A stretch of 64,000 nt of DNA, from NCBI RefSeq assembly GCF_024700885.2, contig NZ_CP117016.1; one strand, 5' to 3'. The notes beneath the pieces were generated by a model. The model made no database searches and had not been told where the DNA came from. It saw nothing but the letters and a program-made list of their open reading frames with translations. Shown one piece after another: positions 3,224 to 9,878 of the stretch. Position 1 is the first letter of the stretch. Each line of letters starts with the position of its first letter. A program made the translations under genes and the position numbers. Source of the stretch: Escherichia coli (lineage in GTDB: Bacteria > Pseudomonadota > Gammaproteobacteria > Enterobacterales > Enterobacteriaceae).

Positions 3224-3418
3224 TTTTTGGTCCTTCTCTGGTGTTGTCTGGGAAGTGTAGAGCATGGCAGGGCGGGGTGCCTGGAGTGTGACAAAGGTTA
3301 CACATCGCTGTATGCAATGCTGAAAATTTCAGCACTTAGCGAGGTGCGAGCAAGCTGGCGCTTGCATGGTGGCGTGCGACAGGTATAATCCACAACGTTT
3401 TCCGCATACCTCTTCAGT

Positions 3419-3503
3419 GCCGAAGTGGCGAAATCGGTAGACGCAGTTGATTCAAAATCAACCGTAGAAATACGTGCCGGTTCGAGTCCGGCCTTCGGCA
3501 CCA
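3419..3503 (+). tRNA. leuX: tRNA-Leu (anticodon CAA)
   Basis: 85-nt sequence GCCGAAGTGG...TTCGAGTCCGGCCTTCGGCACCA with a CAA anticodon loop and long variable arm; genomic position after ahr. Confidence 0.9.
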
Positions 3504-4016
3504 AGTCACTAAATTCCTTACAATACAGGTAGTTAGACAATAAAATCTGTCTCTTTTGCCTGTAAGAAATGCTCTGTTATGTCCCTTGAAAAAGCCGCTG
3601 TGGTTGATAGTGGTAATTGGGATGTTAACTCATAGCGGCGTGTAGTTCCAAGCGTCAAACACGTACTGACTCAACTTGAAAGCTATGACGTAGCCACTGT
3701 CTCTAAACAATCCCAAAAACTTTTAGTGAAGCGCATTTTAGCCCGATGCCCCCGTTCTGCCGCTGTCGCGAGACGCCGCAGGGGATAAACAGGTTTATGG
3801 TGGTCACGGTACTTGCAGACCATATGCAAGCTCTGCCAGCGGTTCGGCCTCGCTCCCCTTGGGTACATGGTCATCCTGATAAGCCTCACTAACTGACATA
3901 ACTGTGATGTAGTCGCCAGAGGCTCCGCTTGTTGTCTTACCACCAACGGGGCTTTATGGATTCTATTGCGGTATGTTTGAAAGTGCGCGGGGGTTCATTC
4001 CCGCGCGTCCGGCGCT

Positions 4017-4931
4017 TTATGGTAAGTATTTAAGTATTTCTGCTGCCCAGTTTACACGGTGGATGACACGGGCATGGTGCAAGTTTCCGTCTAGTATTTC
4101 GGCTTTAGTTAGCTGGGATAACTGCTGCCAATTATTGTTAAGTATATAAGTTGCGTTATTACATTGTGAGCTTTCTAGCACGTAAATGTTTTGGCCTGTG
4201 AACCCAAATATCACGTAGCCTTGGAACCCAGCTTGCCCAACCGCTACGAAATCTGGTTTTTTACTATTGATAAGTTCAAGTCTGCCTTCAACAACAGCGG
4301 TATTGCCCTTTCCCCTGATCTTAATAGCTGAAAGGATTTTTGAGCCGATAGTACTCCAAGGCTGTTGACCCTGAGGCAGGAGGCTCCAGTTTAGTTTTAT
4401 AGATTTACTTTTAACGATGGTATTAAGTTGGTCGTCAACAGTTTCGCACAACCCAAAAAGCTCTAAAAAAAGATTAATGCAGTGAGCCACTAACTCTTTG
4501 TTGTTAGCTGTCAAACTTAGCTTTGGAGAGATGATCAACTTCTCCCCTTGAAGATTCTCTACAATCTTTAACTCTATGCTTGGTGGAGGGGTGAGGATTC
4601 TCTTGTAGCGCTTATACTCAATTTCACGAGTGTCAGTAACTTCTTGAGTTGCGCCCCCTCCGATCCATTGCTTTCTAGTCCATGAAATTTGTCTGTATGC
4701 AGTTTCTTTAGGTGCTGTTTTGTCAGGTACTGATTTGCCATTAGCATTGAATCTGGTTATTGGCCCTAAAATCTTGGGGAGGACTTCTTCACCTAAAGCT
4801 CTTTGACTTGAGAAACCAATAGAGTCCGTTTTCCCCGCATCTGGCAAAGAATGTGCAATGTAGATATCACGGCCATCAAAGTTAGGTATGTAATTATCAA
4901 TATTTCGAATACGCTTTTTCTGAATAAGCAT
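4017..4931 (-). CDS. Hypothetical protein, 304 aa, no family recognised
   Basis: Long ORF in AT-rich island DNA; no motif I can assign. Confidence 0.6.
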   Translation of the reverse strand: MLIQKKRIRNIDNYIPNFDGRDIYIAHSLPDAGKTDSIGFSSQRALGEEVLPKILGPITRFNANGKSVPDKTAPKETAYRQISWTRKQWIGGGATQEVTDTREIEYKRYKRILTPPPSIELKIVENLQGEKLIISPKLSLTANNKELVAHCINLFLELFGLCETVDDQLNTIVKSKSIKLNWSLLPQGQQPWSTIGSKILSAIKIRGKGNTAVVEGRLELINSKKPDFVAVGQAGFQGYVIFGFTGQNIYVLESSQCNNATYILNNNWQQLSQLTKAEILDGNLHHARVIHRVNWAAEILKYLP

Positions 4932-4994
4932 GGATCGTTCCTTTTGATTTTATCTTACTGTTTACATAACCAACCAAGCCGGGCACAATCGAGC

Positions 4995-5094
4995 CGTTAG
5001 AAACGATAGTGAGGCTAACAATCGTTATGAGTTTGCAGACTCATGGCGGTCATGCTTCATAGACCGGATTCACGCAGGTGACTCCGGTTTTTTT
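4995..5094 (+). ncRNA. Candidate small structured RNA with intrinsic terminator
   Basis: Three consecutive hairpins by eye (aacgat/atcgtt; atgagt/actcat; ccgga/tccgg) ending in a 7-T run at 5088-5094; possible sigma70-like promoter (tttaca-17 bp-cacaat) upstream. Confidence 0.3.
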
Positions 5095-5906
5095 ATGCCC
5101 ATCATTTATACATGAGCACAACATATAGGGTGTGTTAATAAGATTACCCCCTACATGTTCAGCATTCTAGTTAGGATTCTTTGCAGTACAAGGGGTGATT
5201 TTGAGGTTAAATTGAGGTTGTCAAAGGGAAATTTCGACCAACCCTACGTGCCGTAAGGCTTAGGCTGTATGTCAATGTTTCAGAAAAAAAATGAAAATTT
5301 GATCGAGTGCTGATTTCTTTAGCACGAGAACATGAGATCGAACCAAAATATTGCAAAGTTTTGAACAAAACTTGAGCTGCCTCGTGTCTCCATAGCCAAG
5401 ACGAATGCAGTTTAAATAAGCTAAGTCAGCTCTCAAAAGTCCTTTATGACCCGAACCAAAAATTGTACCTCTTAAACCCCCACCGCAAGCGGCTCTCCGG
5501 GGTTTGTGCGCGTGGAGTAATGCGATTGTACTGGGTATGTGCGCACAACCCTCTACAAGCCGCATTCTACCGTTAGCCTATAGCTGAATCCCCGGCTTGA
5601 AAAATTGCACGCTTATGGTTGCCCCTCCCTCAACTGTATAGCTCGCCCGCGCCCCCGTGCGCATGTGCGTGCCCGCGCGTCAGGGGTCGCTGAGAAAACC
5701 CTAAGATTTTGCTCATCCGAGACAACCGTTGCAGGCGCGCGTTGCCGGGGCACACTGTTAGTGTTTGATGGTGTCATCAATCGACCGTTTTCTGGCACCT
5801 CCCAATCGCACGCTTTCACACTGTTGGAAAAATAGCCTTGGCTTTTCTGGCAGGCCATCCTAATGTTGGCCTCGTTTTCTGGCAGGGGTCAGATGGGGAG
5901 ATAACA

Positions 5907-6467
5907 ATGGCAACTTTTGGCTACGGACGTGTTTCGACATCGCAGCAGGATACTGAGAACCAACGGCTGGAGCTTGGGCAGGCTGGGTGGCAAATTGATT
6001 ACTGGTTTGCCGATGTTGTTAGCGGGAAGGTTCCGGCAATGCAACGTAAAGCATTTTCTGAAATGCTCAATAAAATCCGCGATGGTGAAACGTTGGTGGT
6101 AGCGAAGCTTGATCGTCTGGGGCGTGATGCGATTGACGTCCTGCAAACGGTAAGGGCGCTGGCTGACCGTAATATCAAGGTTCTTGTCCACCAGCTTGGT
6201 AACACAGATCTCACTTCTGCCGCTGGGAAGTTGCTATTATCTATGCTCGCCGCGGTTGCGGAGATGGAGCGTGATCTGCTGATTGAGCGCACTCAGGCGG
6301 GACTATCACGAGCAAAAGCCGAAGGTAAGAAATTGGGCAGACCTCCTAAAATCGCGTCAGAAGCCCGTAGAGAGATTTTAGAGAAAAAGAATAGCGGTTT
6401 GAGTATCAGTGCGTTAGCGCGTCAATATGGCGTTTCAAGAGCGACTGTAGCAGCTATTACCGATTGA
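5907..6467 (+). CDS. Small serine recombinase (resolvase/invertase family)
   Basis: N-terminal GYGRVSTSQQ catalytic-serine motif and C-terminal HTH (LSISALARQYGVSRATV); start at MATFGYGRVS with SD ggggag. Confidence 0.85.
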   Translation: MATFGYGRVSTSQQDTENQRLELGQAGWQIDYWFADVVSGKVPAMQRKAFSEMLNKIRDGETLVVAKLDRLGRDAIDVLQTVRALADRNIKVLVHQLGNTDLTSAAGKLLLSMLAAVAEMERDLLIERTQAGLSRAKAEGKKLGRPPKIASEARREILEKKNSGLSISALARQYGVSRATVAAITD

Positions 6468-6480
6468 ATATGGAGAGTTT

Positions 6481-7326
6481 ATGGCTTACACAGCAACTGT
6501 TATCCCTGTAATGATTGCTTCTCCTGGTGATGTCGCTGAAGAGAGACAAGTCATTCGTGAAATGATCCATGAGTGGAATGATATAAATTCAGCTCGTTCA
6601 AAAGTAATGTTGACACCAATTGGATGGGAAACTCATACATCACCCGAATTAGGAGTTAGGCCTCAGAAGTTGATTAATCAAAGATTATTAGTAGATTGTG
6701 ATTTATTAATCGGTGTGTTTTGGACTCGTCTAGGCTCACCGACTGGGAACGAGGCCAGCGGAACAGTCGAAGAAATCCACCGTCATTTGAATGCGGGAAA
6801 ACCGGCAATGATTTACTTTTCCTCAAAGCCTGTTGCCCCTGAAAGCCTTGATAGAGAACAATATGAGTCTCTTAAATTGTTCAAAACTGAGTGCATGCAA
6901 AAGGGATTGATAGAGTCTTTTAATGACTTATCTGATTTCAAAGACAAAGTCCGTAGGCAACTTTCGATAATTATTTCTAGTAGCCCTTATTTGTCTTCTC
7001 TTATATCTACCATTAACAATTCTCCTGATGCGAATACAAGTCAATCTTTGCCAGAAAGTAATTTGTCCGCCGATGCACTCAGTTTGCTGAAATTGGCATG
7101 TGTCGATGATAGCGGAACAATTTATGTGATAAGGCATTTAGGTGGCACGGATATTCAAGCGGGAAATCAATCCTTTGGTGGAAGTTCGGCTAGAGAGGTA
7201 GCCCGTTGGGAGGGCGCACTTAACGAACTGTTATCCTTTGATTATGTGATTGAAAGAGGGGCAAAAGGACAAATGTATTATGTTACTCATAAAGGCTGGA
7301 CATTTCTTGAATCTTTAAATGAATAA
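6481..7326 (+). CDS. Hypothetical protein, 281 aa; N-terminal motif resembles DUF4062/TIR-like domains (tentative)
   Basis: Starts 13 bp after the recombinase stop with its own SD (ggagag); N-terminus VMIASPGDVAEERQVI fits a strand-SxxD-x-EER pattern; C-terminal half unassigned. Confidence 0.6.
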   Translation: MAYTATVIPVMIASPGDVAEERQVIREMIHEWNDINSARSKVMLTPIGWETHTSPELGVRPQKLINQRLLVDCDLLIGVFWTRLGSPTGNEASGTVEEIHRHLNAGKPAMIYFSSKPVAPESLDREQYESLKLFKTECMQKGLIESFNDLSDFKDKVRRQLSIIISSSPYLSSLISTINNSPDANTSQSLPESNLSADALSLLKLACVDDSGTIYVIRHLGGTDIQAGNQSFGGSSAREVARWEGALNELLSFDYVIERGAKGQMYYVTHKGWTFLESLNE

Positions 7327-7386
7327 TTAAATGCGAGGCCATTACATAAGTTTATTTTTGATGTGAGGGTGAATTCCCTCACATTT

Positions 7387-7881
7387 TTATTCGAAAGAGG
7401 CCGCAATGACTTCTCCTGTTTTTGCGTTGAAAACACAAAAGTATTGAAGCGGAGCTAGCATCCCCAAGCCGTTAACTACCTTAGCTTGTTGCCCAAATGC
7501 CTGAATAATCTTCGCATTCTCATCGTGCCAGAGATAAGTATTAAATACAGGCGCTTCGCTTTCTTGCCACACATGGCGAAACTTCGCTTTCTCATCCATT
7601 ACCTTTTTGCACTCCCTGACCGGGTTATGGTGCGTTTTCGCATAGCATTCCGGGTTGTCATCTGCACATACGATATCTTTTCGTGCTGTCTGATGCTCAG
7701 CACCTACAGCAGAAAAGGCGCATACGCCCAGCACCAATGAGAGAGTGCCCAGAGCACCCCATACAGTTGCGCGTAGCGTGCTGATGTGCTGCTTTGATAC
7801 AGCATGGGCAACTACACTATAACTGGCCCAGCTAATCGCGGCTCCCGCTGCAATCGGTAGTAAAAAGTCTGCTCCCGTCAT
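7387..7881 (-). CDS. Hypothetical membrane protein (two predicted TM helices plus Cys-containing soluble domain)
   Basis: ORF with hydrophobic N-terminal segments; start set at MTGADFLL with SD gaggga. Confidence 0.5.
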   Translation of the reverse strand: MTGADFLLPIAAGAAISWASYSVVAHAVSKQHISTLRATVWGALGTLSLVLGVCAFSAVGAEHQTARKDIVCADDNPECYAKTHHNPVRECKKVMDEKAKFRHVWQESEAPVFNTYLWHDENAKIIQAFGQQAKVVNGLGMLAPLQYFCVFNAKTGEVIAASFE

Positions 7882-8121
7882 GATTCCCTCACTTTCCAAA
7901 CCACATCGCGCCTGATAGCGAACGCTGGTGACGCCCAACCGATGATGATCATCATACTTGTTGGGTTTTAAATGTCACCATTGGTGTTTGTTTTGAATCA
8001 AAAAGGATTGTCATGATACAGCCGATGAATGCTAGTGACTAAGCTCGCTGACGTGAGATTGGATTCAAAATATCTCATATGGAGCGTGGCCTTACAGTGG
8101 TCAAAATTGCACATTCAGTGC

Positions 8122-8586
8122 ATGAAAAAATCCCTGAGAATACAGTTTGGCGAGCGGGTAAAAGAACTGCGCATTGCCACCGGATTGAGCCAGGAGGCCT
8201 TTGCCGATCGGTGCGGGTTTGCACGTAGTTATATGAGCAGAATTGAACGTGGTGGCTCTAATGCGTCTCTGGATGCGATTGAGGTGCTGGCTAACGCTCT
8301 GAGCGTTGAGCCGTGGCAGTTGTTAGCGCCTGGCCCATCTGAAGATAACGACTCGGAACTGTTGGTTCCATACGCAGCCGATGGTTCCTGTTTTCACCCC
8401 GGTTTGGCGAGCACCCGTGATGGCTCGTTTGGCGTAGGTGATAAAGCGGCTCAGAAGCGTTTTGGCACGTTTGCTGAAGCTCTTGAGTATCTTCGTAGCA
8501 TGGAGACAGCAAAATGGCGTAGGCCTAATCCTAGCGGCAACTGGGGTATCGTATCAGCGGTTCGGTGGGACAAACTGAGAAAGTAG
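8122..8586 (+). CDS. XRE-family HTH transcriptional regulator with unassigned C-terminal domain
   Basis: N-terminal HTH (LRIATGLSQEAFADRCGFARSYMSRIERG); start at MKKSLRIQ. Confidence 0.6.
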   Translation: MKKSLRIQFGERVKELRIATGLSQEAFADRCGFARSYMSRIERGGSNASLDAIEVLANALSVEPWQLLAPGPSEDNDSELLVPYAADGSCFHPGLASTRDGSFGVGDKAAQKRFGTFAEALEYLRSMETAKWRRPNPSGNWGIVSAVRWDKLRK

Positions 8587-9076
8587 CTCAAGTGTAAGTT
8601 TATGAATTTTCATGCTGTATGGATGAACAGTATTCATTAGATGCTGATAGTCTTATGTTTCATCAGCCCTTTGTTTCTATAAGAGTGAATAAAACAGCAA
8701 AATGCGGGTGCGTTACGTAGGCGTTACGGTGGCGTTTCGCTTTGGCTCTTAATGGCTTAATTCATATAAATAACATTGAGTTAAATAGTTATTCTGAACA
8801 AGGTCTGCCGGGGTCTAACTGGTTTCAAAATCCGAACGCAGTGGCGTTTATTCAACGTCCACATAGCTGACAAATGTTCTTTCCTCCCGACTCGGCAGAC
8901 CTCCAGAAACATTAAAAGGCAGGTATGGCACGTTGATGTTTTATGCCGCCACGAACACTCGGTTTGATTCCGTCCAGCGGATCAAACTTAATATGTAGCC
9001 CCTAGAACAAAAAGGTCCTACGATTGCTCTCTTAACAGCTAACAGGAACGTGATTACAGCAGGTTATAGAGACTTA

Positions 9077-9101
9077 GGTTCGAGTCCGGCCTTCGGCACC
9101 A
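9077..9101 (+). repeat. Direct repeat of leuX 3' end (att core copy)
   Basis: 25/25 identity to 3479-3503. Confidence 0.85.
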
Positions 9102-9115
9102 AAAGTATGTAAATA

Positions 9116-9138
9116 GACCTCAACTGAGGTCTTTTTTT
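9116..9138 (+). terminator. Native leuX Rho-independent terminator, displaced 5.6 kb from the tRNA
   Basis: Hairpin gacctc-aact-gaggtc followed by TTTTTTT, immediately after the second copy of the tRNA 3' end. Confidence 0.6.
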
Positions 9139-9287
9139 ATGCCTGAAATCCAGTGTTTATCTATCTTTCCCGCTATATTAACTCTCTCAAGGTCAACCGA
9201 TATCAACGTACATCTACCAACATATGTTGGTACAGATGATGGTATTTCCGGTTCGATAATGCTTGTACCAACAGGGAGGGAATACGC

Positions 9288-9878
9288 ATGGCATTAACAG
9301 ATATCAAAGTCAGAGCAGCCAAGCCAACGGATAAGCAATATAAGCTGACTGATGGTGGCGGTATGCATCTGCTTGTCCATCCAAATGGTTCTAAGTACTG
9401 GCGTTTGCAGTACCGTTATGAGGGAAAGCAAAAAATGCTGGCACTTGGGGTTTATCCTGAAATCACACTAGCGGATGCCAGAGTACGTCGTGACGAGGCG
9501 CGTAAGCTGCTTGCGAATGGCGTCGATCCGGGAGACAAAAAGAAAAATGATAAGGTTGAACAGAGTAAAGCACGAACCTTTAAAGAAGTCGCGATTGAGT
9601 GGCATGGCACCAATAAAAAGTGGTCTGAAGATCACGCCCATCGTGTGCTAAAAAGTCTTGAAGATAATCTTTTTGCAGCGCTTGGTGAACGTAATATCGC
9701 TGAGTTAAAAACTCGAGATTTATTAGCACCTATTGTTCCTTTAACCATCCGCAATGGCCAACGGTTTACAGAGCATAATACGAATAGCCGTAGAGCCAGC
9801 CAGTTACGGTGGTCGCGATGGTGTGTCCGCCAGAAAATCACCACGAATACCAGAATCGCGGCACTGACCAGAAAATGA
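9288..9878 (+). pseudogene. P4-type tyrosine integrase (IntB-like), N-terminal ~150 aa only
   Basis: MALTD.KVRAAKPTDK...YWRLQYRYEGKQKMLALGVYPE matches the P4-integrase N-terminal arm; similarity is lost near 9740 and the catalytic domain is absent. Confidence 0.75.

Follow-up and report, generated by a model that had tools for sequence, protein, structure and literature searches.

The three short repeats upstream of a small serine recombinase gene in an Escherichia coli genomic island are very probably part of a res site of the Tn3/gamma-delta type, serving the serine resolvase encoded directly downstream. Each repeat forms the right half of one of three predicted dyad sub-sites, whose spacing is kept in 68 homologous loci and whose outer word co-varies within a locus and tracks the recognition helix of the recombinase. 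The comparison supports the res-like, multi-subsite binding region suggested by the first-pass annotation. Sharp mosaic junctions between related islands fall at site I, the putative crossover site.

Repeats upstream of the resolvase gene

The window (the whole 64-kb stretch of DNA that was analysed) belongs to an E. coli chromosome of ST648 type, and identical DNA occurs in dozens of RefSeq genomes. An exact-word search located the following copies of one 10-mer:

5788-5797, + strand: repeat 1, TTTTCTGGCA
5843-5852, + strand: repeat 2, TTTTCTGGCA
5875-5884, + strand: repeat 3, TTTTCTGGCA

As 12-mers, the copies read CGTTTTCTGGCA (at 5786 and 5873) and GCTTTTCTGGCA (at 5841), and the bottom-strand reading of each repeat is TGCCAGAAAACG. 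The exact copies reported near the recombinase gene are real, although their coordinates had been placed 1-2 nt off. From start to start, the copies are 55 and 32 bp apart, not 55 and 30 bp as given before, and the first copy begins 121 bp upstream of the ATG at 5907, not within ~100 bp of it. The 10-mer is expected ~0.1 times in 64 kb, counting both strands (4^-10 x 128,000), and is present four times. Given this expectation, the three copies inside 97 bp are not due to chance. The fourth exact copy (2802-2811) lies within the ahr coding sequence, without neighbouring half-sites, and looks like a chance match.

Layout of the probable res site

The description of these elements as direct repeats is correct in that the words are repeated, but they are not free-standing: each is the right half-site of a probable dyad sub-site. 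Only direct repeats are visible by eye because the left halves are degenerate in E. coli. The sub-sites are arranged as follows:

5772..5884, + strand: whole res, 113 bp (site I, 24-bp spacer, site II and abutting site III; layout kept in 68 homologous loci)
5772..5797, + strand: site I, putative crossover site, TGTCATCAATCG-AC-CGTTTTCTGGCA
5772-5783, + strand: I-L half-site, degenerate in the window genome
5784-5785, + strand: central dinucleotide AC of site I
5786-5797, + strand: I-R half-site (repeat 1)
5822..5852, + strand: site II, accessory, TGTTGGAAAAAT-AGCCTTG-GCTTTTCTGGCA
5841-5852, + strand: II-R half-site (repeat 2)
5853..5884, + strand: site III, accessory, GGCCATCCTAAT-GTTGGCCT-CGTTTTCTGGCA
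5873-5884, + strand: III-R half-site (repeat 3); III-L is weak in E. coli

Sites I, II and III are 26, 31 and 32 bp long, and the distances between their centres are 52.5 bp (I-II) and 31.5 bp (II-III). The res adjoins the resolvase gene on its upstream side; site III is nearest the gene and site I furthest away, and 22 bp separate the end of res from the ATG. Dyad symmetry is weak in the window (8, 7 and 5 of 12 positions match in sites I, II and III, respectively), and its I-L is more degenerate than any other I-L seen. Only one match to the full 26-bp pattern of site I is present in the window, versus 0.01 expected. Binding of the resolvase to these sub-sites and catalysis at site I are predicted from sequence. 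The sequence CACACTGTT, found at 5751, recurs at 5817 at the start of site II.

A search of the whole 64-kb window found no second site I or strong half-site pair, and neither the window nor any one of the loci compared yielded a second res. With one res, there is no invertible or resolvable segment in the window of the kind that partner half-sites had been suggested to define.

Conservation and co-variation in homologous loci

A homologue scan with one genome per species returned 80 loci with recombinases 60-100% identical; the taxa include Enterobacterales, Pseudomonas, Oxalobacteraceae and Methylococcales. For 70 loci, including the window, the upstream sequence was long enough and a site I could be detected; two mis-anchored loci were removed and 68 were analysed by comparison of the upstream 170 bp. 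Absence of the repeats from homologous loci had been considered beforehand as evidence against a recombinase-binding role; they are present at kept positions in the 68 loci. The offset from I-R to II-R is 54-57 bp (almost all 55-56 bp) and that from II-R to III-R is 30-32 bp.

In most loci, site I is a 12+2+12 inverted repeat located ~133 bp before the start codon (e.g., TGCCAACAAACG-AC-CGTTTTCTGGCA in enterobacteria and TGTTAGAAAACG-AA-CGATTTCTAACA in Duganella). Site II is a 12+7/8+12 inverted repeat that is conserved across loci. III-R is strongly conserved. III-L is degenerate and AT-rich across the family, and a clear inverted partner was identified only in two clades, those with the outer words GAACA and CAACA (e.g., TGTTCATATATA...CGTTATCGAACA in L056). 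The mean dyad match is 9.6/12 for site I and 7.8/12 for site II, versus a null value of 3.1; for site III it is 4.9/12. The consensus TGTYRGAAAAnn is common to five of the six half-sites in the 68 loci.

The outer half-site word differs by clade (TGGCA, TAACA, GAACA or CAACA), and all sub-sites of one locus switch together. Identity of the outer pentamer within a locus is 0.862, versus 0.677 +/- 0.013 when sub-sites are shuffled among loci, a figure that phylogeny inflates. Each word is paired with a particular recognition helix of the recombinase: SRATIAA with TGGCA, SRANILG with TAACA, SRASVMR with GAACA and SRATVLS with CAACA. Four loci from Oxalobacteraceae (L037, L045, L048 and L065) keep the sites despite different gene neighbourhoods. 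Because the word tracks the helix and the sites persist in other neighbourhoods, we infer that the adjacent recombinase is their natural ligand. Among E. coli genomes, the 125 bp between the left edge of homology (5775-5781) and the ATG show stronger conservation than the resolvase gene (in UTI89, 2 changes versus 88% gene identity).

The resolvase, its neighbour and a putative promoter

The following features accompany the res:

5838..5866, + strand: putative resolvase promoter (-35 TTGGCT at 5838-5843, 17-bp spacer, -10 TAATGT at 5861-5866)
5895..5900, + strand: Shine-Dalgarno-like GGGGAG, 6 nt ahead of the ATG, read from the sequence
5907..6467, + strand: small serine recombinase (resolvase) gene, assigned by Pfam; 186 aa, identical to RefSeq WP_000190110.1
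6481..7326, + strand: DUF4062 protein gene, separated from the resolvase stop by 13 bp (Pfam DUF4062, 23.1 bits versus a curated cut-off of 24.7 bits)

The resolvase matches the Pfam families Resolvase (8.8e-37) and HTH_7. Its best PDB relatives are the gamma-delta and Tn3 resolvases (E ~1e-25), with a weaker match to Sin (1.9e-14). The alignment to gamma-delta resolvase begins at residue 1, and the equivalents of R8, S10, D67, R68 and R71 are kept. Gamma-delta R2 and E56 are residues of the 2-3' interface; Ala and Arg occupy the aligned positions here.

The DUF4062 protein matches the N-terminal 170 residues of PDC-S60 (E 1.3e-26), a candidate defence protein in PADLOC, which makes its gene a candidate for defence cargo. 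It is probably co-transcribed with the resolvase gene from the res promoter. The DUF4062 gene moves together with the resolvase gene in mosaic islands, and in other relatives the slot to the right of the resolvase holds other genes (e.g., AIPR in TUM18530). This region appears to be a second cargo slot.

An element of the form TTGnnn-16/18-TAnnnT is present at a fixed offset from II-R in nearly all of the 68 loci. A consensus promoter scanner identified no + strand promoter inside the window res, where the putative promoter scores 7/12, so the promoter is proposed solely from positional conservation. With this placement, the spacer contains II-R, the -10 box lies within III-L, and transcription would be expected to start close to III-R. 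Tn3, gamma-delta and SGI1 have resolvase promoters for which the same arrangement has been reported or predicted (PMC12217951). Autorepression by the resolvase, probably reaching the DUF4062 gene, is plausible given the conserved promoter position. Of the earlier suggestion of an autoregulatory operator, the conserved promoter-like element inside sites II and III is observed, and the operator role is a plausible extension of it.

The host island

The res lies in a tRNA-associated island, for which the following features were identified:

3419-3503: tRNA-Leu(CAA) gene (leuX)
3479..3504, + strand: attL, 26-bp 3' end of tRNA-Leu(CAA), left island boundary
4017-4931, - strand: 304-aa ORF, left of res
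8029-8586: Cro/C1-type HTH protein gene, conserved in E. coli islands
9077..9102, + strand: attR, right island boundary, where the 26-bp leuX 3' end recurs exactly in direct orientation; a truncated P4-like integrase gene comes next

The gene order is yjgR, ahr, tRNA-Leu(CAA), the 304-aa orphan on the minus strand, ~840 bp of non-coding DNA, the repeats, the recombinase gene, the DUF4062 gene, a 183-aa ORF (a 164-aa protein in RefSeq), the HTH gene and the truncated P4-like integrase gene. The island comprises the 5.6 kb between the 26-bp repeats and has no integrase of its own. A degenerate third copy of the leuX 3' repeat is present at 8961-8986.

The left 490 bp of the island (3479-3969) are the same as the DNA after attR of the complete ATCC 25922 island (L002 11292-11781), which suggests a deletion across two tandem elements, ending at site I. 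The res system of the window strain is probably idle, as there is one res, no integrase and a degenerate left half of site I.

No Pfam, NCBIfam or PADLOC match was found for the 304-aa ORF (E <= 0.001-0.01). A 304-aa gene is also present at the right end of the UTI89 island; an island rearrangement connecting the two was considered and discarded, as the genes are unrelated. Non-coding DNA at 5475-5740 has unannotated counterparts of 93-97% identity in other E. coli, e.g., N9 (L007 6001-6254), where the segment lies ~370 bp upstream of the gene for an unrelated 209-aa serine recombinase (27% identity). The window segment includes a 23-nt imperfect inverted repeat (5489-5511 / 5541-5563). This stretch has no Rfam match and unremarkable folding z-scores (-1.5 to -1.9), and over 3300-9500 the tRNA was the sole Rfam match. 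We also rejected the idea that the left flank is a hybrid with an N9-type res: the N9 homology stops at 5740, leaving 45 bp to the centre of site I, and no motif similar to res was found in the N9-type element. The 43 bp at 5741-5783, of which the odd left half-site TGTCATCAATCG is a part, are confined to the 86 genomes with the same configuration as the window.

Relatives of the island and their cargo

In complete relatives, the order is tRNA, a ~640-aa integrase gene, NIPSNAP, cargo, res and resolvase gene, and the orientation of the flanks around res is constant in all relatives compared. The cargo directly left of site I consists of defence systems or candidates. In UTI89 (L003 3793-7892) it is a complete Gabija system (GajA and GajB). 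Elsewhere this position is occupied by PDC-S06 or a type II methyltransferase (L009, L012, L019; L014), or by proteins with partial matches to PDC-S71/PbeA (L024) and Hachiman-type helicases (L025).

The res-resolvase module of the four Oxalobacteraceae loci lies 200-1900 bp from an opposite-strand tRNA gene. There the module is part of a small island, with a P4-like integrase and a Mob_Pre relaxase at L048 and with a 514-aa large serine recombinase at L065. A search of a phage collection returned one unannotated match of 67%.

Copies of res, the resolvase gene and the next gene, 86% identical, are also found on E. coli IncF/IncHI plasmids (L088, L089), flanked by IS26/IS1. In one plasmid record the 186-aa resolvase is labelled 'Tn3 family transposase', which is a mis-annotation. 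Origin from a Tn3 transposon was considered and rejected, as those on plasmids are pieces of the island module with IS26 or IS1 at their flanks. No tnpA was found in the window island or its relatives; direct repeats derived from a tRNA mark the ends of the element instead.

Mosaic junctions at site I

In ~400 E. coli genomes, homology to the window starts abruptly at 5775-5781, just left of repeat 1, and left flanks of at least 12 unrelated kinds run up to the outer T of I-L. The islands of ATCC 25922 (L002) and 2017.02.03CC (L006) are 99-100% identical for 4 kb from leuX, left of site I. Their identity falls to 65-80% from site I and is back to 99% ~1.86 kb further on. For this pair, and for L004 versus L006, the first mismatch is at +1 after the central AC. 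The divergent right-hand patch of L006 matches a Pluralibacter island (L021) at 91-100%. Left of site I, another pair (L018 and L023) shows no difference over at least 3 kb; to the right, identity is 80-88%. The window and ATCC 25922 are identical for more than 300 bp rightward, and their first mismatch is 3 bp left of the centre.

These junctions are consistent with what crossover at the centre of site I would leave. They map within 1-13 bp of the central AC, a distance to be read against a junction resolution that the conserved half-sites limit to ~13-26 bp, so RecA-dependent homologous recombination at micro-homology could also have produced them. We therefore put forward only tentatively, as a possibility, that site I is the junction at which tRNA-integrating islands exchange modules by resolvase crossover at the central AC.

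In E. coli C 691-04A, a deletion starts within res, 55 bp right of the site I centre (L090 9457), and removes the resolvase and downstream genes. It was rejected as a res event, as it ends at an IS remnant and is IS-associated.

Alternative explanations for the repeats

A resolvase-like protein could repress its own operon from these sites, with no recombination taking place at them. The promoter-like element at a conserved position inside sites II and III would fit such an operator, as would the presence of one site copy per genome (two copies in 5 of 558) in an island without an integrase. Repression alone, however, needs neither a site I ~50 bp upstream of the promoter nor its conservation as the best dyad of the three. 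The catalytic residues are intact and the mosaic junctions at site I are sharp, and we consider it unlikely that the sites are an operator only.

Less likely again is binding of the repeats by a different island regulator, such as the Cro/C1-type HTH protein encoded at 8029-8586. Although this gene is conserved in E. coli islands, the distant loci L037, L045, L048 and L065 keep the sites in different gene neighbourhoods, and the type of half-site tracks the recognition helix of the recombinase. The half-site design is also that of gamma-delta, with an outer TGYCRG followed by an A-tract.

A DNA-invertase switch, in which Hin/Gin-like sites flank an invertible segment, is highly improbable. The recombinase weakly matches the NCBIfam Mpi invertase model (98 bits, below the cut-off of 272) and Gin invertase structures were also matched, but no second or inverted site I was found in 64 kb, the architecture of three sub-sites is that of a resolvase, and the flanks have one orientation in every locus. 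The idea that the repeats are due to chance, or are sigma-54 -24 boxes, can be virtually dismissed: the sigma-54 -24 element resembles TGGCA, but the sequence has no GC element at -12 spacing, three exact 10-mers lie in 97 bp, and the word becomes TAACA or GAACA in homologues with positions unchanged.

Proposed mechanism

For a Tn3/gamma-delta-type res, analogy with gamma-delta predicts that the outer hexamer of the half-site TGCCAG-AAAA-CG would be read by the C-terminal helix-turn-helix of the resolvase, and its A-tract by the minor-groove arm. The substrate would be two res copies in direct repeat on one supercoiled molecule, either tandem islands at one tRNA or dimers and concatemers of the excised circle. 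Resolvase dimers at sites II and III would assemble a synaptosome, and dimers on the two copies of site I would then cut and exchange strands at the central dinucleotide, leaving single copies in place of the array. Resolvase bound at sites II and III would also cover its own promoter and repress its gene, and probably the DUF4062 gene too.

Over evolution, crossover at site I between non-identical islands would join the left part of one (integrase and defence cargo) to the right part of the other. Such module exchange could occur when two islands are in tandem at one tRNA, or when a circle meets a resident island.

By analogy with SGI1, the best-supported role for the family would be to remove tandem copies or concatemers of an integrative, mobilisable island. 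The distant modules beside tRNA genes, with a P4-like integrase and Mob_Pre or with a large serine recombinase, fit this role. Exchange of cargo among unlike islands would be a side effect of this resolution reaction.

Comparison with known systems

As in Tn3 and gamma-delta, a small serine recombinase of the same sub-family is preceded by a res of ~114 bp with three predicted dimer sites, site I distal, a distance of ~53 bp between the centres of sites I and II, and a promoter inside res. The gamma-delta half-site has an outer TGYCNR and then an A-rich tract, and the 12-bp half-sites here are alike in having TGYCNR and an A/T-rich tract. The specific word, TGCCAG, differs, as does the central dinucleotide (AC rather than AT). 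Tn3 sub-sites are 28, 34 and 25 bp (of which only the relative spacer lengths are confirmed), versus 26, 31 and 32 bp here, where sites II and III abut. The present resolvase also departs from the Tn3 and gamma-delta enzymes in having Ala and Arg at the positions aligned to R2 and E56. Unlike those transposons, the element lacks a Tn3 transposase and terminal inverted repeats; its host is a tRNA-integrating island, which carries a tyrosine integrase in relatives. The res of Tn3 is 114 bp long with three dimer sites (PMC2602789). In the family as a whole, the centres of sites I and II are ~5 helical turns apart; the distance is 51 bp in SGI1, with a central AC (PMC12217951).

SGI1 is an integrative mobilisable island with a Tn3-like, three-box res upstream of its resolvase gene, and removal of island concatemers has been demonstrated as the role of that res (PMC12217951). 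As in the present case, the central dinucleotide of its box I is AC, box II (~30 bp) is short and is overlapped by a predicted promoter, and the symmetry of box III is weak. SGI1 belongs to another island family, located at trmE rather than a tRNA, with spacers of 2 bp and 22 bp and a box III of 25 bp. By its description in PMC12217951, the SGI1 res-res system would be the closest in biology to the system described here.

The Sin and beta systems also pair a serine resolvase with accessory sites, and half-sites in direct repeat occur in their accessory site (bioRxiv 10.1101/2021.12.07.471667). They have two sub-sites and a bending protein of the HU/IHF type, whereas the present res has three sub-sites and its site II is an inverted repeat.

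Significance for recombinase-linked defence islands

A res upstream of a resolvase gene is textbook biology, and the finding itself is ordinary. Its value comes from the context of defence-linked recombinases and recombinase-only islands (PMC12632615; PMC10121019). Small serine recombinases have recently been reported as markers of anti-phage defence loci and were used as the RADS bait, with the role of the recombinase stated to be unknown (PMC12632615). The way in which E. coli defence islands with only an integrase or recombinase move has been called unclear (PMC10121019). The present island resembles these loci in having a small serine recombinase gene beside defence genes, with which it is probably co-transcribed. 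Those papers define no recombination site, whereas here a predicted res is tied to the boundary of the cargo. Our search of the literature found no description of the res of this island family.

For one widespread family, ranging over Enterobacterales, Pseudomonas and Oxalobacteraceae, the analysis provides a predicted DNA site of the recombinase at base-pair resolution. It also provides four natural specificity classes of matched helix and half-site, which are possible tools, and evidence that a slot for defence cargo ends exactly at the putative crossover site. The maintenance and cargo-shuffling roles thereby become directly testable. If modules are indeed exchanged at site I, this would provide a mechanism for the link between recombinases and anti-phage systems, and would explain the turnover of cargo in 'integrase/recombinase-only' defence islands.
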